The position numbers and the translations under genes are program-made. Under the pieces are notes generated by a model that did not search any database, was not told the DNA's origin, and saw nothing but the letters and a program-made list of their open reading frames with translations. Shown one piece after another: positions 920 to 16,433 of a stretch of DNA of 19,738 bases. The DNA is from Phycisphaerae bacterium (GTDB lineage Bacteria; Planctomycetota; Phycisphaerae; UBA1845; Fen-1342). The stretch is taken from NCBI GenBank assembly GCA_050115495.1, contig JASFQK010000059.1, positions 1 to 19,738 on the forward strand, in the 5' to 3' direction. Numbering within the stretch: position 1 is the stretch's first letter; every line of letters starts with the position of its first letter.

Positions 920-3900
920 CTAGTGGCCGAGCAACAGGTCGACAAAGGGGCTGATGTCGAAGTTGTCCACAGAGCCGTCGCCGTTGATGTCGGCCAGGAC
1001 GAGACTGCAATCCGGATAGGCGGCGGCGTAGTCCTCCGGGTGCAGCAGAGCGAGCAGGAAAGCGCTGATGTCGAAGTTGTTGACCTGATCACTGCAATTC
1101 ACGTCGCCGGCGACGTAGGAACCGAACTCGTCGGCGCCCATGTCGACGATGGCGACGCCGTCGCCGTTGCCGTCCCACAGCCGGTACTGCCCGTCCATAT
1201 CCGTCGTCTGGTCGGGCTCCGGCATGAACGCCGGGTCGCTGGCGTCGACGCAGGGTGAGCCTGAACCAAGGTGATAGTCGTCATTGCCAGGATCGGTGAA
1301 GAACGGATCCTGGTCGATGTTGCCGGTCCCTGCCCAGCCGCCGCAGATGTCGCTGTATGCGACGGTGACCGTTGACCCGTCCAGATTTGCGATCTCGTCG
1401 TCGTTGTTGCCCCAGAAGATGCAATTCACAATGCCAACAGTGCTTGGAGCGCCGGAGGACTGGCAACTCAGGCCAGCTCCTCGACCTGCGGTATTATCGG
1501 ACAGCGTGCAGTTGATCAGTTGCAGGTCACCGGCCTCGGTGGTCACCCCGCCGCCGTCCCACGCCTCGCCGGCCGTGTTATCGTAGAGCTCGCAGTTCAC
1601 GGCTACCACATCGGAATTAACGACTTGCAGCCCACCGCCCCAGTCCGCCGCCGTGTTCTTCGAGATCGTGCAATTGACCAACAAGGCGGGAATCGCGTAG
1701 CCGTGGGCGCCCCAGATGCTGAGGCCACCGCCGTAGTCTGCTGTGGCTTGGTTGCCCGTGATAGTGCAGTTGACATAGGTCGGGACTCCGCCCGCACCAC
1801 CCTGGCCGCCGCCCATTTCGGCCGTGTTGTCCCTGATCACACAATCGATGAAGGTTGGGAAGCCGTCTTCGAGCGCGATCCCTCCACCGTCCACGGCTTG
1901 GTTCTCCGCGATGGTGCAGTTGCTGACGTCTATATAGCCGCGCACAATCATCCCACCACCATACCCGCTCGAATCGATGGTCTCGTTGCCGGTAATGGTG
2001 CAGTTCGTGATGCGTGCGGCGGGTTCGAAGTCAGGGTTGTAATTGGTGCGATTCTCGCGAAGACACATGCCGCCGCCCTGTTCGCCTGTTCTGTTCATGG
2101 TGATTGTGCAGTTTTCAACGAGGAGCCGCAATTCCCCCGGTGGAAACGGAGTGCCGCGCGAGTCGTACCAGTAGAGGGCTCCGCCTCCCGACTCAGCATG
2201 GCAGTTCGTCATGATGCAGTTGGTGATCGTCGCGGAGCTGTCCAGGAAGAAGAAGGCGCCACCGACGGCATAAATGTCGCTGGTTGCGTAGCCGTTCGTG
2301 ATGGTGAAGCCATCCACGACCGATGTCAGTGTCTCGTCGGTGTAGAAGAAGTAGAAGCCGCGGTGGGGGGCTTCGGCGCTGCCCTGGCAGTCGATGATGC
2401 AGGCCTCGGGATTGCCGCTTTCGGAGCGAAGGGTGATCGCCTTACCGTCGAAAGTCAGATCGCGGTTGCCGTCGCCCGTGTACGTGCCGTCGGCGACGAT
2501 GATCTCGTCGTAATCCAGCGCCGCATCGATTGCCGCCTGGATCGTCGCGTACTCGCTGGGCACATGAAGCAGCCTGCACACCACATCCAGCGTGACGAGC
2601 ACCTCACGCGGGGAATTCCCCGCCTGCGGGTCGGCAACCTCCAGCAGGGCCGTGTACCGGCCAATGTCCAGACCGCTGACGTCCACGCTGAGCGTGACCT
2701 CGTCCACCTCCCCGTTCGAGTCGCCGCTCGACGGCTGGACCGTCAACCACGCTGGCTGGCCGGTGATCTCCCAACTCAGGGTACCGCCCCCGCAGTTGCG
2801 GACGCCGAGAGTCTGATCGGATGGGTTACCCTGCCCGTATATAGCGTCGAAGTCCAGCTCGACCGGGCTCAACGCGATCGAGGACGCGGCGAGGTTGAAC
2901 TCGTAGGCACCCATGTCGGTGACCGCGACGGTGTCCCCGTCGCCGTCCAGCGGACGCGGGTTGCCGTCCGAATCTTCCGCCGGCAGCCCCCCGGGAGGGG
3001 TGTCGGTGCCCGTGTCGATGCACGGTGAGCCGGACAGCAGATGCAGGTCGTCGGAGAAGGCAAACAGCGGATCGGCGTCGATGTTCCCAGTGCCGGTGTA
3101 GCCGCCCTCCACATTGCAGTACGTCACGACGGCGTCGCAACCGCTGGTGAAGTCTAACTCTGGGAAATTAACCGGTGATATATCGCCCCAGAAAACGCAG
3201 TTGGTTAGCGTTGGGCTGCCGTCGGTGCCCCTCATACCGCAGCCGTAGAACGCCGTATTCCCGGTGAACGTGCAGTTGGTGAGCGTCGGGCTGCCGCCGT
3301 AGGAGATGCCGACACCGCCCGCCGTGCCGCCGCCCGTATTCCCGATGATCGTGCAGTTGGTGATCATCGGGCTGGCGTCGCGGCAGTAGACGCCGCCGCC
3401 GTGAGCCGCGAAATTTCCGCTGATCGTGCAGTTAGTGATCGACGAGCTGGAGTTGCGGCACTGGACGCCGCCGCCAGAAGCGGAGCCGTCGGCGGTATTC
3501 CCGGTGATGATGCAGTTGGTCAGCGTTGGGCTGCTGGCGTAGCAGAAGACGCCGGCACCACCGACGCCGTCGTCGACGTACCCGTTCGTGATCGTCAGGC
3601 CCTCGACGACCGAGTCCGCGCCTTCACCCGAGTGGAAGTAGAAGCCGCGGCCGGCGCCTTCACAGTCAATGATGCACAGGGCCGGGTTGCCGGAGGCGCT
3701 GCGCACTGTGATCGCCTTGCCGGCGAAGCCCAGGTTCTTGTTTCCGGTTCCGGTGTACGTGCCGTCGGCGATGACGACCTCATCGCCATGAGTGGCTGCA
3801 TCGATCGCGGCCTGAATCGTGGCGTAGTCGGCTGGCACGTGCAGCGTATCGGCGTGCAGTACCATCGGCCCACCCAGCGCGAGCGCGAGCAGCGGCACGA

Positions 3901-3937
3901 CGAGCGTGAGACACTTGTTCGTTGAACCAGCTTTCAT
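920..3937 (-). CDS. Secreted right-handed parallel beta-helix repeat protein (two pectin-lyase-fold modules, BACON-like linker, C-terminal dockerin-like domain), ~1005 aa
   Basis: ATG 3937 with GGAGG RBS and signal peptide (MKAGSTNKCLTLVVPLLALALGGPMVLHA). Two modules start HVP..Y.TIQAAIDAA and end GNID.DP.F...HL.SGSPC.D...DMGA.EF. Many GGG/NCTI.GN repeats. RNCGGGTLSWEITGQPAWLTVQPSSG is BACON-like. GDVNCSDQVNNFDISAF...ADINGDGSVDNFDISPF is dockerin/EF-hand-like. Confidence 0.9.
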   Translation of the reverse strand: MKAGSTNKCLTLVVPLLALALGGPMVLHADTLHVPADYATIQAAIDAATHGDEVVIADGTYTGTGNKNLGFAGKAITVRSASGNPALCIIDCEGAGRGFYFHSGEGADSVVEGLTITNGYVDDGVGGAGVFCYASSPTLTNCIITGNTADGSASGGGVQCRNSSSSITNCTISGNFAAHGGGVYCRDASPMITNCTIIGNTGGGTAGGVGISYGGSPTLTNCTFTGNTAFYGCGMRGTDGSPTLTNCVFWGDISPVNFPELDFTSGCDAVVTYCNVEGGYTGTGNIDADPLFAFSDDLHLLSGSPCIDTGTDTPPGGLPAEDSDGNPRPLDGDGDTVAVTDMGAYEFNLAASSIALSPVELDFDAIYGQGNPSDQTLGVRNCGGGTLSWEITGQPAWLTVQPSSGDSNGEVDEVTLSVDVSGLDIGRYTALLEVADPQAGNSPREVLVTLDVVCRLLHVPSEYATIQAAIDAALDYDEIIVADGTYTGDGNRDLTFDGKAITLRSESGNPEACIIDCQGSAEAPHRGFYFFYTDETLTSVVDGFTITNGYATSDIYAVGGAFFFLDSSATITNCIMTNCHAESGGGALYWYDSRGTPFPPGELRLLVENCTITMNRTGEQGGGMCLRENRTNYNPDFEPAARITNCTITGNETIDSSGYGGGMIVRGYIDVSNCTIAENQAVDGGGIALEDGFPTFIDCVIRDNTAEMGGGQGGAGGVPTYVNCTITGNQATADYGGGLSIWGAHGYAIPALLVNCTISKNTAADWGGGLQVVNSDVVAVNCELYDNTAGEAWDGGGVTTEAGDLQLINCTLSDNTAGRGAGLSCQSSGAPSTVGIVNCIFWGNNDDEIANLDGSTVTVAYSDICGGWAGTGNIDQDPFFTDPGNDDYHLGSGSPCVDASDPAFMPEPDQTTDMDGQYRLWDGNGDGVAIVDMGADEFGSYVAGDVNCSDQVNNFDISAFLLALLHPEDYAAAYPDCSLVLADINGDGSVDNFDISPFVDLLLGH

Positions 3938-4043
3938 TGCGGCGTCCTCCTGTCCTCGCTGTTGAAGAGAAACCCTCGAATACACGCAAAACAGCTCGGT
4001 GAGCCGGCCAATCACGTTTTCTCGTAGAAGCGAGGCTGCATTC

Positions 4044-4072
4044 AACCTATCTTAACGGTCTGAGTATGTCAA
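4044..4072 (-). promoter_or_regulatory. Sigma70-type promoter for the secreted-protein gene
   Basis: Minus strand TTGACA (4072-4067), 17-bp spacer, TAGGTT (4049-4044). Confidence 0.65.
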
Positions 4073-4158: not shown

Positions 4159-5403
4159 GTGATGAAGTCCGAAATCAGTCAAATCGAAGGAGCACCTACC
4201 CGGATCATTGAGGCCAAGATCGACCGCGTCATGAGGGGATTGGCTGAGTCATTATCGGGCGTTCTTCGCGGCCTGCCGGGCAATCCACGGCGTCCGCAGG
4301 CGTTGGCCGAGTTCCTCGACCTGAACAAATCGCTCTCAAGCCGCCTGTGCCGGGCGGTACGGGTTCCCGACCCGTTTGCTGCGGCGCATCTGATGCCGGG
4401 ACCGGAAGCGCTGCGCATGTTGCTGCGGGCCGCGGCAGGGAAGGGCGTCGGGCGGTCGACCATCGTCGCGGCCGAGAAGGCCGTTTCGGCCTTCGAGCAG
4501 CTCATCGAGCACGACGTTGGAAGCCGTGACGGCCTGGAGGCGGTGATCAGTGAGAGCCTGCCGGACGCCCGGAGGAAGTTCGAGCTGGCCAATAAGCAGG
4601 CGATGTTCAAAGCCGCTGCGAACCTCAAGGGCATGATGGCCGAGGTCTACTGGGTTACGTTCCTGGCGCACCCGGGTAAGGACGCCGAGCGCCACGATGT
4701 CGCCGGGCTCTCCGGGTTGCGAGGACTTCGCCGCGTGCGGCCCGGCGCAGCCGTGTTGGTCACCAATCGGGTTATGGCAACAGACTTGGGGGATGAAGCC
4801 TATCTCACGCTTGACGGCGGGCGGATCGATGGTATCGACGGGCTCTTGCTGAAACCGTATTGCTCTTCACCACTACCCGAGTTGGACGCCAAGCAGAAGG
4901 GGAGCTGCTTGTACTACCGCCTCGCGGACCCGGGCTATGGACCCAATTCAGCGGTTGATCTTACGTTTGCTGAACTGTGTCGGCGGAGCATTCACCGGTA
5001 TCGCCCTGCGCAAGGGAAGCGAATATCAGGCACCTGGGCCGAGGTGGAGCACCCGGTGAAGACGTTGGTATTCGATTTCCTGCTGCACCAGGATGTCTGG
5101 CCTGGCTGCGAGCCGGAGCTGCGCATCTACGACACCATCGTGCGCGGTACGGCGGAACCGGAAAACCCCGAACGCGACATAGATCTGTTGGAGCTGGATG
5201 AGTCGATCGAGTTACTGGGCCGCACGGCAGCCAAGTTCCGCGCGGTCGAAATTCCCAATTACCTCGATATGCTTCGTCACGCCTGCGGCAGGCTGGGTTG
5301 GGACGTGGAGCAGTTTCGCGGCTACCGTTGCCGCATCCAGTATCCTTTCTACGGCTCCCAGGTGTGTATGGCGTTCAACCTGCCCGAGTCGCCGCCAAGT
5401 TGA
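4159..5403 (+). CDS. Hypothetical 414-aa protein, probable transcription regulator with N-terminal HTH-like segment
   Basis: Long ORF with its own promoter. PQALAEFLDLNKSLSSRLCRA has an HTH-like pattern; no signal peptide or TM helix; divergent arrangement. C-terminal domain not recognised. Confidence 0.75.
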   Translation: MMKSEISQIEGAPTRIIEAKIDRVMRGLAESLSGVLRGLPGNPRRPQALAEFLDLNKSLSSRLCRAVRVPDPFAAAHLMPGPEALRMLLRAAAGKGVGRSTIVAAEKAVSAFEQLIEHDVGSRDGLEAVISESLPDARRKFELANKQAMFKAAANLKGMMAEVYWVTFLAHPGKDAERHDVAGLSGLRGLRRVRPGAAVLVTNRVMATDLGDEAYLTLDGGRIDGIDGLLLKPYCSSPLPELDAKQKGSCLYYRLADPGYGPNSAVDLTFAELCRRSIHRYRPAQGKRISGTWAEVEHPVKTLVFDFLLHQDVWPGCEPELRIYDTIVRGTAEPENPERDIDLLELDESIELLGRTAAKFRAVEIPNYLDMLRHACGRLGWDVEQFRGYRCRIQYPFYGSQVCMAFNLPESPPS

Positions 5404-8107: not shown

Positions 8108-8308
8108 CTGCGCGAAACTCCGCAGTACCGGCGGCCAACAAGCCCGACTACCCGTCCCGGCGCATAAATCTGCGAGATTTTCCTCAACAGGTGACGGCCT
8201 CGGGGCCGGTCGAACCGAGGTCGATCGGCGTAAGTGTTTATCGGAAAGCCAGTTAAAGAAAACACCCGCCAACACGTGCCGGCCACGAAACCCGGCACGC
8301 CGTGTGCT
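8108..8308 (+). promoter_or_regulatory. Putative sigma54 promoter with upstream activator sites for the ior operon
   Basis: CGGCACGccgtGTGCT (8293-8308; GG-N10-GC). TGCG-N8-CGCA (8109-8124) and TGCG-N8-CTCA (8171-8186). AT-rich tract at 8231-8265. Confidence 0.6.
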
Positions 8309-8413
8309 CAGCCCAGGAACGCGTCGTTGTGCGTCGCTGGTACGGGGAGTAGGTGGAATCAGCTCCGGGCTGGTGCCGGGGATCGACGGGCGGGAGATCG
8401 GAGAGCGAAGGCG

Positions 8414-10039
8414 ATGAAGACGGAACTGCTGCTCGGCGACGAGGCCCTGGGCTTGGGAGCGCTGCACGCCGGCATCGGCGGGGCGTTTTCGTACCCCGGT
8501 ACGCCCGCGACGGAAATCTTCGAGTTCATCCAGTCCCGCAACCGGGATGGTGCGATCTCGGCCCGGTGGTCGGCGAACGAGAAGGTGGCGTACGAGGAAG
8601 CCCTCGGCATGTCCTACGCCGGCAAGCGGGCCCTCATCTCCATGAAACACGTCGGCCTCAACGTCGCCGCCGACCCATTCATTAACTCCGCTCTCACCGG
8701 CGTGAACGGCGGCATCGTCCTGGCCGTGGCCGACGATCCGGGCATGCACTCCTCTCAGAACGAGCAGGACAGCCGTTACTACGGCGAGTTCGCCCAGATC
8801 CCCGTGATCGAGCCCGCCAACCAGCAGGAATGCTATGACCTGACCCGCCAGGCCTTCGACCTGTCGGAGAAGTTCAACCTGCCCGTGATGATCCGCCTGG
8901 TGACCCGCCTGTCGCACAGCCGCTCGAACGTCCACATCGGCGATGCGGGCAACGCGGCCGAACGGGCCCGCACCCGCCTGCCGCTCCCCGACCCCAACGA
9001 CTGGACGCTCGTGCCGGCGAACGCCCGCCGCCGCTTCCTGCGGCTGCTGGGCATGCAGGGCCAGTTGCGGGAGTGGTCGGACCATTGGCCGCTGAACCCC
9101 CTGACGCTCCGGGGGCCGAAGGGCATCATCGCCTCGGGCATCGCCTACAACTACGCCCGCGAGGCCCTGAGCGACGAAACCGATTATTCGCTCCTGCGGA
9201 TCAGCACCTACCCGGTGCCCGTGGGCCTGATTCGCCAGCTCCTGGCCCACTGCAACGAGGTCTGGATGCTCGAAGAGGGCTATCCGTTCATCGAGACCCG
9301 GCTCAACGGGCTGCTCGGCGTCCCGGGCAAGGCGATTCGCGGGAAGCTCAGCGGCGACCTGCCGCCCTCCGGCGAACTGACCCCCGACATCGTGGCCAGT
9401 GCCCTCGGCGAACTGTACGTCGAGCCGACCGCGGCCCTGGACGACCTGGCCAACCGGCCGCCGGCCCTGTGCCGCGGCTGCCCGCACGCCGACACGTTCA
9501 AGGCCTTGATTGAGGCGACGATCCGCGAGGCCGAGGCGATCCTCTTCAGCGACATCGGCTGCTACACGCTGGGCGTCATGCCGCCGTATAAGGCCGTGCA
9601 CTCCTGTGTGGACATGGGCGCCTCGATCGCCATGGCCCACGGCGCGGCGCAGGCCGGCGTGCACCCGGTGCTCTGCACGATCGGCGACTCGACCTTCACG
9701 CATTCCGGCATGACCCCGCTGCTGGGCGCCATCCGCGCCGACGCGGACATGACCGTGTTCCTGCTGGACAACGCCACCGTGGCCATGACCGGCGGGCAGG
9801 AGACCATGGCGGCGGGTGAGGACCTGATCCGCCTGCTGAAGGGACTCGGCGTCAACGAACAGCACATGCACATCATCGAGCCGTTGGGCAAGTACCACGA
9901 AGAGAACGTCAAGCTGATCTCCCGCGAGCTCAACCACCGCGGGCTGTCGGTGATCGTTGCCCGGCGGGAGTGCATCCAGACGGCGCGGAAGACGGTAGGG
10001 ACGGCCAAGAAGCCCGCGGCGGCTACGGCCGGGGCGTAA
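8414..10039 (+). CDS. iorA: Indolepyruvate/arylpyruvate:ferredoxin oxidoreductase alpha subunit (TPP-dependent), 541 aa
   Basis: LLLGDEA, SYPGTPATEI, WSANEKVAYE, MKHVGLNVAADP, ADDPGMHSSQNEQDSR, RPPALCRGCPH, DIGCYTLG, TPP motif GDSTFTHSG...LDN, VAMTGGQ. ATG 8414 with GGAGAG upstream. Confidence 0.95.
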   Translation: MKTELLLGDEALGLGALHAGIGGAFSYPGTPATEIFEFIQSRNRDGAISARWSANEKVAYEEALGMSYAGKRALISMKHVGLNVAADPFINSALTGVNGGIVLAVADDPGMHSSQNEQDSRYYGEFAQIPVIEPANQQECYDLTRQAFDLSEKFNLPVMIRLVTRLSHSRSNVHIGDAGNAAERARTRLPLPDPNDWTLVPANARRRFLRLLGMQGQLREWSDHWPLNPLTLRGPKGIIASGIAYNYAREALSDETDYSLLRISTYPVPVGLIRQLLAHCNEVWMLEEGYPFIETRLNGLLGVPGKAIRGKLSGDLPPSGELTPDIVASALGELYVEPTAALDDLANRPPALCRGCPHADTFKALIEATIREAEAILFSDIGCYTLGVMPPYKAVHSCVDMGASIAMAHGAAQAGVHPVLCTIGDSTFTHSGMTPLLGAIRADADMTVFLLDNATVAMTGGQETMAAGEDLIRLLKGLGVNEQHMHIIEPLGKYHEENVKLISRELNHRGLSVIVARRECIQTARKTVGTAKKPAAATAGA

Positions 10040-10155
10040 GCGGGTGGCCCGGACGGTGCCGGGTGAATGACGGGGATAATGGTCTGTCGCGCGGCCGTTG
10101 AGACCGGCGGTGCGGCGGACGTGAGAGGCAGTCAGCAAGGCAAGAGGGCAGGCTC

Positions 10156-13100
10156 GTGCAACAAAACCTGATTCTGGCGGGCGTCGGCGGACAGGGAATT
10201 CTCACCATCGCCCGGGCAATATCCACCGCCGCGCTGCGGCGTGACCTGACGGTCAAGCAGGCCGAAGTGCACGGGATGTCACAGCGCGGCGGGGCGGTGC
10301 AGTCTCACCTGCGACTGGCCGACCACGAGCTGCACAGCGACCTGATCCCCCTCGGCCAGGCGGACATCGTTCTGGCGGTCGAGCCGCTGGAGACGCTGCG
10401 CTACGTGCAGTATCTCCGCACCGACGGCGTGATCGTGGCCAGCACCAACGCCGTCGTGAACATCGACAACTACCCGTCGATCGAGCAGGTGCTCGAGCGC
10501 GTCGCCGCTTATCCGCGGCACGTCCTGCTCGATGCCGACGGGCTGGCCCGCAAGGCCGGCTCGGTCCGCTCGGCGAACATCATCGCCTTCGGGGCGGCGT
10601 CGCCGTTCCTCGAGATCGACGCCCAGGAGCTGGAAGACGGCGTCGCCGAGATGTTCTCCCGCAAGGGCCCCGAGGTCGTTGAAGTCAATCGCCGGGCGTT
10701 CCGCATCGGGCGCAACGCGGCGGCGGCCTATCGTGAAGCTCTCTCGCGCGGTCTGTCGTCGCGGGCGGCCCGCGAATGGATCGACCAGATTCCGATCGAG
10801 CAACTGGCTGCGGGCGACGTGCCGGCGGCAACCGTTGAGGCGGACACCGGCAAGGACCGCCTGACCGGCGCCGAGATCCAGGCTTTCGAGCGCTCGCTGG
10901 TGCGTGCGTACGAGGAAGGCCGGCGACAGCTCTACGAGCACGAGGTCTACAAGCTCGTGGAGATCGTCGGGGCAATCTCGCCCCCGCGCTACGTCTTCGT
11001 GCCGCGCGACGGCATGATCTCGGCCGAAGCGCTTCAGGCGTTTCCCGGCGACCGCGTCGTGCTGAAGGTCGTCTCGCCCCAGATCGTCCACAAGACCGAG
11101 GCCAAGGGCATCGTCTTCGCCCCGAAGGACCACAACGTCGTTAAGCGGGAGATCGATCGGCTGGTGGCCGCGCACCGCGAGACGGCCCACGTGGAAGGCG
11201 TGCTGGTCGTCGAGTTCGTCGAGCGGGCCGAGGCCGGCTTCGGCAACGAGCTGTTCGTCGGCGTGCGGGCCACGCGTGAGTTCGGCCCGGTCATCGCCGC
11301 CGGCCTGGGCGGCGTCGACACCGAGTACCTCGCGACGAAGATGAAGCCGGGCATCGCCGTGGCCAAGGCCTGTGCCATGGACACGACCGCCGAGCACTTC
11401 TTCGCTTTGTTCCAGCGGACGGCGGCGTACGACCTTCTCTCGGGACGGACGCGCGGGCATAGCCGCATCGTCTCCGACGGTGAACTGCTGCGCTGCTTCC
11501 GGGCGTTCATCTCGATTGCCCGGCAGTTCTGCGTCGATCGCGGGGCTGAGGGCCCGGACGTGGCCGAGCTCGAGGTGAACCCGTTCGCCTTCCGCCACCA
11601 GCGCATGATCCCGCTCGACGGCCGGGGCCGGCTGGAGACCGCCGCCAAGGGCCGGCCGCCGCGGCCGATCGACAAGGTGCAGCGGATGCTCGAGCCGCGG
11701 GCCGTCGCCGTGCTCGGCGTCTCCAAGAAGTCGAAGACGAATTTCGGCCGGATCATCCTGAACAACATCCAGGCCTGCGGCTGCCCGCCGGAGCACCTGT
11801 ACGTGGTCAAGGAGGATGAGACCGAGATCGACGGCGCGCCCTGCGTGCCCAACGTCGCCGCTCTGCCCGAGGTCGTCGACCTGCTCGTTATCGCGGTGCC
11901 GGCGGCGACCATGCCCGGCGTCGTCGACGAGGTCGTCAAGAGCAAGAAGGTTGGCGCGGCCATCATGATCCCCGGCGGCGTTGGTGAGACCGAAGGCTCG
12001 GAGGAGATTCAGCGGGCGACCCAGGCGGCCATCGACCGCGGGCGCGAGCTGCCCGACGGCGGCCCCGTCTTCCTCGGCCCGAACTGCATGGGCATCCAGT
12101 CGCGGCCCGGCCACTACGACACGTTCTTCATCCCGACGGACAAGCTCGACTCGCGCTGGACCGCACCGGCTCGTCGCGTCGGCCTGGTCTCGCAGAGCGG
12201 TGCGTTCATCATCGCCCGCCTGAGCAACCTGGAGACGCTCGACCCGGCGGTGTCGATTTCGCTGGGCAACCAGATCGACCTGACGCTTGCCGACCTGCTG
12301 GCGGCCGTCGGTACCCGCGACGACATCGACGCCATCGGCGTGTACGCCGAGGGCTTCGCCAATATGGGCGGGCTCGACTTCGTGCGGGCCGTGGCGGACA
12401 TCACCGCCGCCGGCAAGATCGTCGTTTTCTACAAGGCTGGCCGGACTTCCTCGGGCCGCAGTGCGGCGGCCGGGCACACCGCCTCCGTCGCGGGCGACTA
12501 CGACGTCTGCCAGGCGGCCGTCGAGAACGCCGGCGCCATCGTCTGCGAGACGTTCAAGGAGTTCGAGCAGATGCTCGAGCTGGCCACGGCGCTGCACGGC
12601 AAGAAGGTCGCCGGTCGGCGGATCGGCGCCGTCAGCAACGCCGGTTACGAGACGGTCGGCATGGCCGACAACGTCACGGGCGGCCGGCACCAGGTGGACC
12701 TCGCCCCGCTTTCCGACGAGACCCGCGAGCGGCTTGTTCAGTCGCTCACGAAGTACAAGCTCGACAAGCTGGTCAACGCCCGCAACCCGCTGGACATGAC
12801 GCCGATGGCGACGGACGAAGCGTACGCCCAGTGCGCGCAGGTCGTCCTGGACAGCCCGGACGTCGACGCCGTCGTGGCGTCGTTCGTGCCCCTCACGCCA
12901 GCGATGCTGACCACGCCGGACGAGGTGACGAAGTCGGGTTCTGTGGCCGAGCGTTTGGCGAAGCTGTTCGACGCGGCCGGCAAGCCGCTGGTCGTGAGCA
13001 TCGACTCCGGCCCGCGCTATGATGCTCTGGCCCGCGTCATCCGGGCGGCGGGCGTACCCGTCTTCCGCTCGGCGGACCAGGCCATGCAGGTCCTGGGCCG

Positions 13101-13221
13101 TTACCTCTGCCACCGCTCCGCCATCGTCGAGTCCCGCGAGGCCCCGGCCAACAACGCCGCCCCGCCAGGCGCCCCCGCCACCGGCGACCGCCGCGCCCGC
13201 CCGCGTCCGGTCAAGGCATAG
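10156..13221 (+). CDS. Fusion of IOR beta subunit (IorB) and ADP-forming acyl-CoA ligase (ATP-grasp beta, then CoA-binding alpha domains), 1021 aa
   Basis: aa 1-190: ILAGVGGQGIL, AEVHGMSQRGGAVQSHLR, EPLETLRY, NIIAFGA. ATP-grasp: VLKVVSPQIVHKTE, GVLVVEFV, EFGPVIAAGLGG, ELEVNP. CoA-binding/ligase: PRAVAVLGVS, FLGPNCMG, VSQSGA, SLGNQID, KAGRT...AAAGHTASVAG, SNAG, NPLDMT. Confidence 0.92.
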   Translation: MQQNLILAGVGGQGILTIARAISTAALRRDLTVKQAEVHGMSQRGGAVQSHLRLADHELHSDLIPLGQADIVLAVEPLETLRYVQYLRTDGVIVASTNAVVNIDNYPSIEQVLERVAAYPRHVLLDADGLARKAGSVRSANIIAFGAASPFLEIDAQELEDGVAEMFSRKGPEVVEVNRRAFRIGRNAAAAYREALSRGLSSRAAREWIDQIPIEQLAAGDVPAATVEADTGKDRLTGAEIQAFERSLVRAYEEGRRQLYEHEVYKLVEIVGAISPPRYVFVPRDGMISAEALQAFPGDRVVLKVVSPQIVHKTEAKGIVFAPKDHNVVKREIDRLVAAHRETAHVEGVLVVEFVERAEAGFGNELFVGVRATREFGPVIAAGLGGVDTEYLATKMKPGIAVAKACAMDTTAEHFFALFQRTAAYDLLSGRTRGHSRIVSDGELLRCFRAFISIARQFCVDRGAEGPDVAELEVNPFAFRHQRMIPLDGRGRLETAAKGRPPRPIDKVQRMLEPRAVAVLGVSKKSKTNFGRIILNNIQACGCPPEHLYVVKEDETEIDGAPCVPNVAALPEVVDLLVIAVPAATMPGVVDEVVKSKKVGAAIMIPGGVGETEGSEEIQRATQAAIDRGRELPDGGPVFLGPNCMGIQSRPGHYDTFFIPTDKLDSRWTAPARRVGLVSQSGAFIIARLSNLETLDPAVSISLGNQIDLTLADLLAAVGTRDDIDAIGVYAEGFANMGGLDFVRAVADITAAGKIVVFYKAGRTSSGRSAAAGHTASVAGDYDVCQAAVENAGAIVCETFKEFEQMLELATALHGKKVAGRRIGAVSNAGYETVGMADNVTGGRHQVDLAPLSDETRERLVQSLTKYKLDKLVNARNPLDMTPMATDEAYAQCAQVVLDSPDVDAVVASFVPLTPAMLTTPDEVTKSGSVAERLAKLFDAAGKPLVVSIDSGPRYDALARVIRAAGVPVFRSADQAMQVLGRYLCHRSAIVESREAPANNAAPPGAPATGDRRARPRPVKA

Positions 13222-13283
13222 CACCGCGGCAGCAACCTCCACGCTCCGCCCCGGCCACTGTAGCGCCGGCCTCCTGACGTCTT

Positions 13284-13309
13284 GTAGCGGCCGGTCTCCG
13301 TGCCGGCCG
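13284..13309 (+). repeat. GTAG-type REP-like element, family A copy 1
   Basis: GTAGCGGCCGGTCTCCGTGCCGGCCG: GTAG plus CGGCCGG/CCGGCCG stem; identical to 16408-16433. Confidence 0.85.
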
Positions 13310-13383
13310 ACCTCCGCGTCAGCCGTCGATCGCCGTCGACCGGTCGCTTCCGCTCGCGGCTCGGACTGTGGCCTCGGCGGCGC

Positions 13384-13413
13384 GTAGCGTCGGCCACGGG
13401 GGGCCGACGCTAC
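13384..13413. repeat. GTAG-type REP-like palindrome, family B copy 1
   Basis: GTAGCGTCGGCC-ACGGGG-GGCCGACGCTAC, perfect 12-bp arms. 13388-13413 matches 19520-19545 at 25/26. Confidence 0.85.
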
Positions 13414-13420
13414 CACGCCT

Positions 13421-13449
13421 GTGCCACTGGTGGCTTGTCCACCAGTGCC
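13421..13449. repeat. Palindromic repeat, family C copy 1
   Basis: GTGCCACTGGTGGCTTGTCCACCAGTGCC with stem CACTGGTGG/CCACCAGTG; 26/29 identical to 16652-16680. Confidence 0.8.
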
Positions 13450-13474
13450 GAATCCCTTCACCAATCGACGGCCG

Positions 13475-14863
13475 CTACGGCGCCGGCTGCGTCGTCGCCG
13501 CGGGCTGCGTTTCCGTCGCCGGTTGTGACGCAGGTGTCTCCGCCGGCTCTTCGCTCGGCGGATTCAGGATGAAGTCCGCCACCGCCGCCAGCTTCGCCGG
13601 CGACAGCCGAAATGCCGGCATCTGCGGGAACCCCGCCCGCTTCTTGCCGGGAGCCTTCGTCCACTCGATCAACCCTGCAGGATTGCCCGCGTAGAGGCTG
13701 CGCACCTCTTTCAACGGCGGCCCGACCAGCACGCGATCCTCCATATGGCACGCCGCACACACCTCGCGGAAGACGCGCTGCCCCAGCGGCTCCCCCGCGG
13801 CCAGCGTGATGCCCAGGTCAGCCCGAAGCTGCGCCGCCGACGCCAGCCGCCCAAGATCCTCGGCCCGTTGCTCGATGAGCGTGCGGTGGTCCGACAACGC
13901 CCCCTCGCGGTACAGGTGCCGCCCATACCCCATACAGACCACGGTGCCCGTCAGCAGGGCGACGATCGGCACAAACCGCCGCCCGATCCGCTGTTCGGTC
14001 GCCAGAATCTCATGCCATAACAGCACCATCGCCGCAATCGCCAGCGAAATGCCCGTCAGGAAGACCAGCAGCATCATCCAGCCCACGCCGCGCGACGGCA
14101 GCGTGAACAGCAGCACCGGACCCGCGACGAATTGCGCCAGCGTCGCCCAGAACGCCACCGCGTAGAACCCGCGCCGTAGCTCCGCCCGCGTGAACGTCTC
14201 GAACTTCTCTTCGACGGCGTAGCCCTTCCGCGTGAAGTAGATCGCCAGAAACAGCCCCGTCACCGCGATCGACGCCAGGAAGAAGTGGGCATAGCGCGGC
14301 AGCACGTTCGGCAGCGACACCGCCGACATGAACCCGCGCACGTCGAGCCACTTGTCCGGGAACAGCATGAGGTTGATATTCGTCAGGAAGATGAACGGGA
14401 TCAGCAGGAAGAGGATGGTGCCGAACGCCCCGATGGCGATGTGTAGCACCTTGAACTCCGCGAGCTTGTCCCACGAATACTTGTGCGCATACGTGACGAG
14501 AAACGCGGCCGTCACCAGCGGCACGATCATGATCCACACGCTGCCGGTCAGCGCGTTCGCCGAATAGAAGTAGATGGTATAGAGCACGTTGATTGCCAGC
14601 AGCGGCGCCACGCCCAGTACGACGGCCATGCTCTTGTTGACCGTGATCGTCTTCCCGATCTCGCGGGCCAGCCGGTCGAAGTCCGGCCGTTTCAGTCCGG
14701 CGATCTCGCACACGATGGTCAGCAGCGACCCGCCGACCATGAGGTTGATGAACAGGATGTGGGCCAGGAAGCTCAGGACGAGGACGGCCTCACCCAGCAC
14801 GCGGTCCACGGGCAGCGGGAGGGGCAGGTCACTCGGCACGGGAAAGGCGTTTGTCGGATCCAT
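13475..14863 (-). CDS. Multi-pass CydA-like (cytochrome bd subunit I superfamily) membrane protein with C-terminal class I cytochrome c, 462 aa
   Basis: About 9 hydrophobic segments; FLAHILFINLMVGG, RYAHFFLASIA, MGYGRHLYRE. C-terminal GQRVFREVCAACH...VGPPL...FPQMPAF (CxxCH plus distal Met). Confidence 0.8.
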   Translation of the reverse strand: MDPTNAFPVPSDLPLPLPVDRVLGEAVLVLSFLAHILFINLMVGGSLLTIVCEIAGLKRPDFDRLAREIGKTITVNKSMAVVLGVAPLLAINVLYTIYFYSANALTGSVWIMIVPLVTAAFLVTYAHKYSWDKLAEFKVLHIAIGAFGTILFLLIPFIFLTNINLMLFPDKWLDVRGFMSAVSLPNVLPRYAHFFLASIAVTGLFLAIYFTRKGYAVEEKFETFTRAELRRGFYAVAFWATLAQFVAGPVLLFTLPSRGVGWMMLLVFLTGISLAIAAMVLLWHEILATEQRIGRRFVPIVALLTGTVVCMGYGRHLYREGALSDHRTLIEQRAEDLGRLASAAQLRADLGITLAAGEPLGQRVFREVCAACHMEDRVLVGPPLKEVRSLYAGNPAGLIEWTKAPGKKRAGFPQMPAFRLSPAKLAAVADFILNPPSEEPAETPASQPATETQPAATTQPAP

Positions 14864-14917
14864 GAGATGTTTCCGTCAGGGGCCAGCACGGGCGAAAGCG
14901 ACGCGTTTGCAGCGCGG

Positions 14918-16339
14918 CTACCCGCCGCCGGCCGAGGCCTCCTCCGTTTGTGCGACCTGTGCCGTCGGCATCTGCACGCCGGCCTCCTGCGCCCCTTCAA
15001 TGCCCACCGACGCCCCCGGCAACCACAACAGGTACTCCGCCAGCGCCGTCATCTCGTCGTCGGTGCCCGGGAACGGCGGCATGTACGGCCGCGTGTTGTG
15101 CATCGTGCCGATGTAGCTCTTCACGATCGTCACATCCCACGGCGGCGGCCCGTACAGCCGCTCCAGCTTCGCCGTGATCGCGTTCACCCCACGCGTCGTG
15201 TGGCACCGCGTGCACGCGATGCGAAACAGCTCCTGGCCAGCGGCGACGCGGTTCGTATCCGTGATCGTATGCATCGGCACGTACGTCGCCCGCTTCAGCA
15301 GCCCCTGCTCCTTCAGCAGCGCCAATTCGTTCAGCCGCACGCCGTTGGAGTACATGTACCCTTCGATCACCGCCGGCTTGCGGATGAACTCGCGCACCCG
15401 CTCGAAATACCCGAGCTGATAGATGCACAGCACGAACGGCACCAGCAGCGCCACCCGCGGGAACCACCGCGGTGCCAACATTCCCCACAGCATCACGAGC
15501 AGCACGACCACCGCCGACGCCGCAATGACCCACGCCAGCGTCAGGTACCACCCTTCAAACGCCTGCGTCGCCAGCGCCACCGGAATATTCGCCAGCATCC
15601 CCTCCGGTATCACCCGCCAGTACCACGCCGACCCCGCCGCACACACCGGCGTCCACAGCAGCGTCCACACCGCGATGAATCGGATCACCCGGGGCCGAAA
15701 CAGCGTCTCCCGCTTCGTGAAGAAGAACACCAGCAGCAGCATGAACAGCCCCGCCGCGACCATCGCGTACGGCGTGCGGAAGAGCAGTTGCGGCAGGTAG
15801 ATCGGGTTGGCGATGCCGGTCAGCAGGTTCGGCGCCGTCGGCCACGCTCCGGAGTCCATCATGAACCCCAGAATCGCGACGATGATCGCCATCGTCAGCC
15901 AGGACATGACCGTCAGCGCCACGCCGGCGGCCAGGTGCAGCGGCTTCCACCGCCCGACCCAGCGGTGCCACGTCAGGAAGTACAGCAGGATCAGCATCAC
16001 CTCGCAGACGAAGACGATCCACTCGGTGAACCACGCCCAGAAGAACACGCGAATGAGGCTGCCGATGGCGTACGGATTGACCAGCGACGCCGACAGCCAG
16101 ATCCCTACGCCGGTGAGCGCCCCCAGCGACGTCGTGACGATGACGCAAACGAACAGCAGCTTGTAGGCGAGCCGGTCCCATTGCTCCTCCCCGCGTCGCC
16201 AGCCCCACCACTCGATCAGCACGATGAGCGGGGCGGCCCCGACGGCGAGGGCATGGTTGATATACACGTGCAGCACGGCGATCACGCCAATGAGCACCCG
16301 GTTACCGAAGAAATCCAGGTGAAAGACTGGAAAGTCCAT
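14918..16339 (-). CDS. Multi-pass CydA-like membrane protein with C-terminal cytochrome c, 473 aa
   Basis: ATG 16339 (MDFPVFHLD). AVLHVYINHALAVG, GALTGVGIW, WFTEWIVFVCEV, ILGFMMD, ERVREFIRKPAVI (CydA E.GRQPW-like). C-terminal GQELFRIACTRCH...PYMPPFPG. Confidence 0.82.
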   Translation of the reverse strand: MDFPVFHLDFFGNRVLIGVIAVLHVYINHALAVGAAPLIVLIEWWGWRRGEEQWDRLAYKLLFVCVIVTTSLGALTGVGIWLSASLVNPYAIGSLIRVFFWAWFTEWIVFVCEVMLILLYFLTWHRWVGRWKPLHLAAGVALTVMSWLTMAIIVAILGFMMDSGAWPTAPNLLTGIANPIYLPQLLFRTPYAMVAAGLFMLLLVFFFTKRETLFRPRVIRFIAVWTLLWTPVCAAGSAWYWRVIPEGMLANIPVALATQAFEGWYLTLAWVIAASAVVVLLVMLWGMLAPRWFPRVALLVPFVLCIYQLGYFERVREFIRKPAVIEGYMYSNGVRLNELALLKEQGLLKRATYVPMHTITDTNRVAAGQELFRIACTRCHTTRGVNAITAKLERLYGPPPWDVTIVKSYIGTMHNTRPYMPPFPGTDDEMTALAEYLLWLPGASVGIEGAQEAGVQMPTAQVAQTEEASAGGG

Positions 16340-16407
16340 GATTTGACTCAGCCTGCCCGAACGTGGCCCGCACACCCTGCGACGTCAGGTGCCATTGGTG
16401 GCGCCTC

Positions 16408-16433
16408 GTAGCGGCCGGTCTCCGTGCCGGCCG
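16408..16433 (+). repeat. GTAG-type REP-like element, family A copy 2
   Basis: 26/26 identical to 13284-13309, same orientation. Confidence 0.85.

Follow-up and report, generated by a model that had tools for sequence, protein, structure and literature searches.

A fusion of an indolepyruvate oxidoreductase beta subunit with a beta-alpha ADP-forming acyl-CoA ligase in Phycisphaerae

This study concerns a gene of a Phycisphaerae bacterium in which IorB, the beta subunit of indolepyruvate oxidoreductase (IOR), is joined in one reading frame to an ADP-forming acyl-CoA ligase (ACD). The gene lies in positions 1 to 19,738 of contig JASFQK010000059.1 (assembly GCA_050115495.1), a stretch of 19,738 nucleotides that is called the window here. 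We found that the fusion is no artefact, that it is conserved and evolves under purifying selection, and that the IorA subunit encoded directly upstream is its co-inherited partner; tree tests indicate that such fusions arose at least twice. The reading we favor, with a probability of roughly 0.55, is that IorA and IorB-ACD form one catabolic complex. It would oxidize 2-oxoacids derived from amino acids (arylpyruvates, probably), yield acid, CO2, reduced ferredoxin, and ATP, and recycle coenzyme A (CoA) locally.

Results

Anatomy of the fusion gene

An initial annotation of the window had described one uninterrupted open reading frame (ORF) at 10156..13221 encoding IorB, a linker, an ATP-grasp domain with His312, and CoA-binding and ligase domains with His774, in beta-before-alpha order and with equivalents of both phosphohistidines of the ACD reaction. 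Each of these points was borne out. The ORF lies on the plus strand, starts with GTG, and encodes 1021 amino acids with no stop in the linker. Pfam placed POR at residues 11-186, ATP-grasp_5 at 251-490, CoA_binding_2 at 515-648, and Succ_CoA_lig at 673-809, which is the beta-before-alpha order. The features of the gene and its partner are as follows.

8414..10039, plus strand: iorA, short type, 541 amino acids, with POR_N and TPP_enzyme_C domains (Pfam; matches TIGR03336 positions 2-538 of 595)
10156..13221, plus strand: IorB-ACD(beta-alpha) fusion gene (ORF translation, Pfam, homologues)
10156..10713, plus strand: IorB, amino acids 1-186, corresponding to domain III, the mobile domain that binds CoA in 2-oxoacid:ferredoxin oxidoreductases (OFORs) (PF01558; NF005324)
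10714..10791, plus strand: conserved helical extension, amino acids 187-212 (column conservation 0.75; pN/pS 0.26; helices 172-197 and 202-211 in the structural model)
10792..10863, plus strand: linker of variable sequence and fixed length, amino acids 213-236 (pN/pS 0.73; model confidence 78-79)
10864..11640, plus strand: ACD beta part, ATP-grasp subdomains 3-4, amino acids 237-495 (Pfam, alignment, structure superposition)
11089..11091, plus strand: His312, equivalent of the nucleotide-site phosphohistidine (alignments; 120/120 homologues)
11686..13116, plus strand: ACD alpha part, subdomains 1-2-5, amino acids 511-987 (Pfam, alignment, structure superposition)
12475..12477, plus strand: His774, equivalent of the swinging-loop phosphohistidine (alignments; 120/120 homologues)

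The IorB part scored above the NF005324 equivalog cut-off (269 bits vs. 222) and below that of TIGR03334 (143 vs. 205.8). In the ligase part, H312 lies in an HKT motif and H774 in a GHT motif; they align with H69 and H503 of Nmar_1309, the nucleotide-site and swinging-loop histidines of that enzyme, respectively (bioRxiv 10.1101/2025.09.22.677778). H312 also aligns with His68 of the Korarchaeum ACD1 beta chain. Both histidines were present in all 120 homologues examined and were invariant in a 150-row alignment. Subdomains 1-2-5 and ATP-grasp subdomains 3-4 were found with the ACD fold, the template modeling (TM) score being 0.86 to 9y43 and 0.88 to the 4ybz alpha chain. The ligase nevertheless scored far under all named ACD cut-offs (235 vs. 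567 bits for TIGR02717, 214 vs. 1200 for NF045494, 190 vs. 1300 for NF045492, and 159 vs. 1300 for NF045493). Its signature, F684, R688, [FY]831-E832, and T882-P883-M884, is common to unfused relatives and differs from that of the solved enzymes aligned. Judged by its sequence, the ligase is a separate, uncharacterized ACD subfamily.

Conservation and distribution

In a search for homologues, 8000 candidates were scored and 1177 hits obtained; the best 120 of these, which were examined, all had the four Pfam domains, with 93-100% query coverage and 60-100% identity. Orthologs carry the fusion as one open frame through the linker. Of 595 GTDB loci, 80 were kept, and 13 of these 80 show such a frame, in every case with iorA immediately upstream; named Planctomycetota account for 11 (several of them Phycisphaerae), Myxococcales for one, and a delta proteobacterium for one. 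Of 301 genomes of the class, 17 contained the full fusion, and all 17 belong to the window's order, which is represented by 45 genomes and in which the relatives that have names are Phycisphaerae. A separate sample of the phylum gave 2 of 251 genomes, counting the window's own. In databases these proteins are named only 'indolepyruvate oxidoreductase subunit beta'.

An assembly or frame artefact was ruled out by the 120 full-length homologues and the many single-ORF loci. One contig of run X1 covered 8300-13300 with 0 differences, although X1 may be the source sample and the match is thus not independent. One database gene call begins at an internal GTG, at residue 249 (773 amino acids). The corresponding column among 106 sequences holds L in 34, V in 19, E in 19, and M in only 3, so there is no conserved start and this call was rejected as a gene-calling artefact. 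The ratio of nonsynonymous to synonymous changes (pN/pS, from uncorrected proportions in eight close loci) was 0.25 for IorB, 0.26 for helix 187-212, 0.73 for linker 213-236, 0.28 for the ATP-grasp part, and 0.35 for the alpha part.

The IorA partner

The iorA gene lies directly upstream of the fusion gene. Its start was taken as the ATG at 8414, since homologues align from there. IorA contains the motifs YPGTP (residue 27), GDST (residue 424), CRGC, DIGC, and RECI, which by analogy with OFOR structures we take to serve the thiamine pyrophosphate (TPP) site and the proximal cluster; Cys353, Cys356, Cys383, and Cys520 are candidate ligands of that cluster. The match to TIGR03336 stops at position 538 of 595 and reached 507 bits vs. 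a cut-off of 650.9. A CxxCxxC ferredoxin motif was found in 0 of 97 related IorA tails. Taking the missing end of the TIGR03336 model as the C-terminal 2[4Fe-4S] ferredoxin domain (domain V), IorA by sequence lacks that domain. OFORs without domain V have one FeS cluster, and OFOR domain III binds CoA and shifts by ~7 Å upon binding (PMC13768988). Since IorA lacks the ferredoxin domain, a free electron carrier would be needed. A strict regular-expression search for small ferredoxins in the window's own genome matched none and was not used as evidence.

The association of IorA with the fusion was consistent. iorA is adjacent in all 13 fused GTDB loci and in 16 of the 17 loci of the order, the last having it on a separate contig. 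Orthologous IorA (59-76% identity) was present in 17/17 fusion genomes vs. 0/28 others of the order, four of which have only a distant IorA (~40%). A tree of 52 IorA rows gave the same clade and subgroups as the ACD tree described below.

Linker and predicted structure

The span from R186 to E261 is 75-77 amino acids in 104/104 main-clade proteins of alignment A2, whereas it is 25 and 55 residues in two fusions outside that clade; among the loci, L012 has a linker ~11 amino acids longer than the others. A structural model built from 20 sequences had a predicted local distance difference (pLDDT) score of 72.6 and a predicted TM score (pTM) of 0.52. A model from 150 sequences reached a pLDDT of 92.5 and a pTM of 0.89, with a linker pLDDT of 78-79, and superposed on the whole Nmar_1309 chain with a TM score of 0.86 and a root-mean-square deviation of 4.0 Å. 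If residues 1-236 were unplaced, the pTM could reach only ~0.71-0.79. The observed 0.89 exceeds this ceiling, so the model puts IorB at a defined place on the ligase and implies docking there; the placement is calculated from a confidence score, and when an enzyme is a dimer, modeling one chain by itself can show contacts between chains as if they lay within the chain. Complex predictions with IorB (1-220) and the ACD (238-987) as separate chains scored 0.00, 0.31, and 0.00 against a mark of 0.32 and were not used either way.

Origin of the fusion

Unfused iorA-iorB-acd(beta-alpha) operons occurred in 9 of the 80 loci (L015, L016, L019, L025, L026, L032, L055, L076, and L080), from Myxococcota, Acidobacteriota, Aminicenantota, Bdellovibrionota, and records named Eubacteriales. 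One further locus held a lone beta-alpha ACD, and 57, mostly from Bacteroidota, held IorB without a beta-alpha ACD. The operons have the same gene order and ligase subfamily as the fusion but a stop between iorB and acd. Six of the nine operon IorB proteins have a C-terminal tail of roughly 55-85 amino acids. By eye its first helix is similar to residues 187-212, and the linker hidden Markov model gave one match (L019, E 0.15), which weakly suggests that tail and helix may be homologous. The unfused operon is the likely ancestral state by sequence comparison; in the literature searched we found no description of such operons being characterized.

In an ACD tree of 43 rows, from which three duplicate or truncated loci were left out, the 28 fusions formed one clade (Shimodaira-Hasegawa-like approximate likelihood ratio support 100) with two IOR-less ligases, L098 and L099, nested inside it. 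The L098 and L099 genomes have no IorA orthologue, and we read the pair as a probable secondary loss of the IOR part that freed the ligase again. In all, L098, L099, L100, and L014 encode ligases of or near the fused clade that stand alone without iorAB; L098 adjoins a transposase-like ORF.

Among 150 representatives at 50% identity, most were unfused, and two shorter-linker fusions, P0143 (941 amino acids) and P0151 (951 amino acids), fell among unfused ligases. Approximately unbiased (AU) tests on 28 rows (LG+G4, quick search) rejected the grouping of P0143 with the main clade (p 1e-53), of P0151 with the main clade (p 4e-114), and of P0143 with P0151 (p 2e-6), and a single origin was thereby ruled out. 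The P0143 cluster has 10 members, one named Zixibacteria; four further clusters at 70-72% share its architecture, making a family of 5 clusters, and the next hits are unfused ligases at 45%. Two loci of this type (L118 and L119) have iorA upstream of the fusion and, two genes further upstream, a gene for a class I aminotransferase. P0151 is a single sequence and could be an artefact, and the origins are therefore counted as at least two; by this sequence evidence the fusions came from unfused iorA-iorB-acd operons.

Two other arrangements were seen among the loci. In a Melioribacter record (L070:6318-10698) iorAB is followed by an ACD of alpha-beta order, an independent pairing of IOR with the other ACD type. 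In an Ignavibacteriaceae record (L057:7386-8594) the C-terminal part of IorA is seemingly joined to IorB; either a frameshift or another division of the two subunits may account for this.

Gene content of the host

The window's own genome is 92% complete. It contains an RnfD-type gene and seven [FeFe]-hydrogenase matches, and family searches of it found no COX1-family gene and no acetate kinase. It also has a second ACD, of alpha-beta order, and three other POR-domain genes, which in our reading serve common substrates. By gene content, the host looks like a fermenter that gains ATP by way of ACDs. Within the order, 8/17 carriers of the fusion had the [FeFe] hydrogenase family vs. 2/28 non-carriers, kin not being independent.

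The own genome has aroC, tyrA, and trpA. Among the carriers, TrpA was present in 15/17 and prephenate dehydratase (PDT) in 11/17, the latter vs. 21/28 of the non-carriers (Fisher p 0.51; kin again not independent), and no link across the order was found between the fusion and auxotrophy as judged by the presence of TrpA and PDT. Decarboxylation of the products further downstream, to toluene, cresol, or skatole, was considered and rejected, no glycyl-radical enzyme having been found in the own genome.

A second fusion involving domain III was seen in the own genome at G000:C9:46363-48912 (L117:3364-5913, minus strand), where a PorC/gamma subunit continues into an NAD(P)-binding flavoprotein resembling GltD (507 bits to NF009410 vs. 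a cut-off of 516), upstream of PorA- and PorB-like genes. It is possibly a 2-oxoacid:NAD(P) oxidoreductase.

Other features of the window

A promoter and terminator scan gave nothing above shuffles. RNA run X3 contained short contigs that match iorA, iorB, and the alpha part almost identically, at most a possible sign of expression. Convergent with the fusion gene, 13475-16375 (minus strand) encodes two membrane proteins; both are single-copy and have a cytochrome c domain at the C terminus, and they are not kept beside other fusions. Positions 13275-13310, 13388-13450, and 16399-16433 are copies of an abundant short repeat family, by appearance like repetitive extragenic palindromes; blastn with the two intergenic copies as queries found 280 and 158 hits across the genome. 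A 414-amino-acid ORF at 4159-5403 (plus strand) has no Pfam match; the genome encodes at least 9 paralogues of it (36-47% identity), and it is divergent from a beta-helix/BACON/dockerin-like gene at 920-4045.

Discussion

The interpretation in the initial annotation held up for the fusion, the histidine pair, the IorA partner, and a fermenter-like host; it had overlooked that IorA lacks the ferredoxin domain and that there were at least two fusion origins. In the mechanism we propose, TPP on IorA would decarboxylate the 2-oxoacid, and the only [4Fe-4S] cluster, the proximal one, would pass the electrons on to ferredoxin or flavodoxin as a free carrier, to be reoxidized by Rnf or the [FeFe] hydrogenases. 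CoA on domain III (IorB) would accept the acyl group, and the ligase on the same domain would convert acyl-CoA and Pi to an acyl-phosphate, from which the phosphate would pass to His774, then to His312, and finally to ATP. CoA would thus be freed beside the site needing it again, the gain being a fixed 1:1 stoichiometry and short-range CoA recycling. The predicted complex is (IorA)2(IorB-ACD)2, of ~335 kDa, with chain masses of 58 and 109 kDa.

Several observations weigh against this catabolic scheme. Nmar_1309, the closest solved ligase, forms acyl-CoA in vivo (bioRxiv 10.1101/2025.09.22.677778). The substrate of the ligase cannot be read from its sequence, which is below the ACD cut-offs and has its own signature; since that signature is unlike those of solved enzymes, aromatic specificity is deduced solely from the IOR partner. 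Apart from iorA, no aminotransferase or other neighbor was kept across the loci compared (13 with the fusion, 10 with an operon or a lone ligase), and the aminotransferase of L118 has no close homologue in the own genome (22-23%). The ligase of the fused clade survives without IOR in G134, G169, and G148. A COX1-family gene is present in 12/17 carriers, so most carriers are not strict fermenters. Finally, the family search found no match to PDT (pheA) in the own genome, where pilT and trxB are adjacent (G000:C45:38816-41146); relative G269 has pilT-pheA-trxB (L110:1358-5103), its pheA encoding a chorismate mutase-prephenate dehydratase. Without PDT, Phe must come from uptake, another dehydratase, or the complex run backwards.

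In a stronger form of the catabolic scheme, which we rate as less likely than not, oxidoreductase and ligase would be docked and CoA would be a captive cofactor. The ligase would ride on the swinging domain III and acyl-CoA would bypass the cell pool, so that the whole would be a single '2-oxoacid:ferredoxin oxidoreductase (ATP-forming)', invented at least two times with different linkers (75-77 vs. 25 residues).

The rival that survives best, though we consider it rather unlikely, is anabolic salvage, in which the ligase would use ATP to activate arylacetates from the environment (phenylacetate, 4-hydroxyphenylacetate, or indole-3-acetate), the fusion would deliver the thioester directly to domain III, and IOR, with low-potential ferredoxin, would reductively carboxylate it to the arylpyruvate for Phe, Tyr, or Trp synthesis. 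The absence of pheA from the own genome, by both the syntenic site and the family search, with aroC, tyrA, and trpA kept, would fit such a role, as would the lack there of a PaaK above cut-off. A reverse direction of IOR has been proposed for methanogens and, as a possibility, for Bacteroides (PMC13285125); Bacteroidota IorA is short like the one here (~50% identity), and Nmar_1309 is an acyl-CoA-forming beta-alpha ADP ligase. However, PDT loss is not enriched in carriers (6/17 vs. 7/28, Fisher p 0.51), and the published anabolic argument (PMC13285125) was built on an AMP-forming ligase, whereas the ligase here is of the reversible ADP-forming type.

It is less likely still that the complex carries out the same catabolic chemistry on other or broader substrates (branched-chain, methionine-derived, or other 2-oxoacids), 'indolepyruvate' being a family label only. 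No IOR was among the solved-structure matches for IorA, which is also under the TIGR03336 cut-off; the ligase subfamily is uncharacterized; and specificity does not strictly follow OFOR clade, as the VOR-like HpdDEFG takes arylpyruvates (PMC13285125). Against this, the IorB score exceeds the cut-off of the IOR-beta equivalog NF005324, three further POR-domain oxidoreductases are encoded in the genome, and Bacteroides IOR is tied to the conversion of Phe to phenylacetate, with a neighboring ligase that takes arylacetates (PMC13285125).

That the fusion is inert, a tolerated loss of an operon stop codon leaving two independent enzymes linked through the bulk CoA pool with no kinetic effect, is quite improbable: unfused forms are widespread (9/80 loci and most of the 150 representatives), the ligase was apparently freed again in L098 and L099 within the fused clade, the central linker evolves fast (pN/pS 0.73), and the shallow-alignment model had a pTM of only 0.52, but the fusion is kept across an order at 55-100% identity with a span of 75-77 amino acids in 104/104 proteins (L012, ~11 longer, aside), it has at least two origins, and the pTM of 0.89 is above the ceiling for an unplaced IorB.

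If the captive-CoA proposal were true, it would be the first built-in product channeling in the OFOR family. With only two genes to express, the fusion and iorA lend themselves to asking whether OFORs pass acyl-CoA directly to the next enzyme. They also offer a handle on what a large uncharacterized beta-alpha ACD subfamily acts on, and on whether the short-IorA clade, gut Bacteroidota included, works in fermentation or in aromatic amino-acid salvage. Annotations of Phycisphaerae-type genomes overlook a possible route of substrate-level phosphorylation, and with it a possible origin of arylacetates where oxygen is absent.

Comparison with known systems

The initial annotation stated that separate ACD enzymes follow IOR in Thermococcales. 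This stands for the enzymes as chains; in the genome the two are less separate, since the alpha gene of Pyrococcus furiosus ACS2, PF0532, is in the IOR operon (PMC3942289), and IOR-ACD neighborhoods in bacteria have been published (PMC13285125). ACS2 acts on phenylacetyl-CoA and indoleacetyl-CoA, and IorAB with ACS2 (PF0532 alpha, PF1837 beta) catalyzes the same two consecutive reactions, giving a precedent for a catabolic IOR-ACS2 pathway (PMC3942289). The IOR-plus-ACD fermentation scheme has been applied in genome papers too (PMC5817080). In P. furiosus the ACS2 alpha and beta subunits are separate chains, whereas here beta and alpha are joined to each other and to IorB, and the TIGR03336 model extends at its C-terminal end beyond the present IorA.

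Nmar_1309 is the best match in both sequence and fold, with the same subdomain order, 3-4-1-2-5, and with H69/H503 corresponding to H312/H774. It differs in having 23% identity, no IorB, a role in CO2 fixation in the acyl-CoA-forming direction, and another active-site signature. The short IorAB of the Bacteroidota type resembles the present system in an IorA without the ferredoxin motif and an IorB ~50-56% identical to that of the fusion, but its ligase, PaaK, is AMP-forming and separate, whereas here it is ADP-forming and fused; some of those genomes have the ligase gene beside iorAB, the gene order in L079 being iorA-iorB-paaK-ACT-aminotransferase. Bacteroides IOR adjoins such an AMP-forming ligase and may be biosynthetic (PMC13285125). 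In Peptostreptococcales many genes for IOR or 2-oxoisovalerate oxidoreductase (VOR) lie near PF13607 ligases, one of which is active on phenylacetate, hydroxyphenylacetate, and indoleacetate; these clusters, with Pta-Ack or an ADP-forming ligase, appear as gene neighbors and not as fusions in the text consulted (PMC13285125).

The literature search, with most subscription journals and supplements outside it, found no description of an IorB-ACD fusion. The chemistry, the linkage of IOR and ACD genes, and the beta-alpha order of ACD are already known. New relative to the literature searched are the covalent joining, its repeated origin, the fixed linker, and the pairing with a ferredoxin-less IorA.

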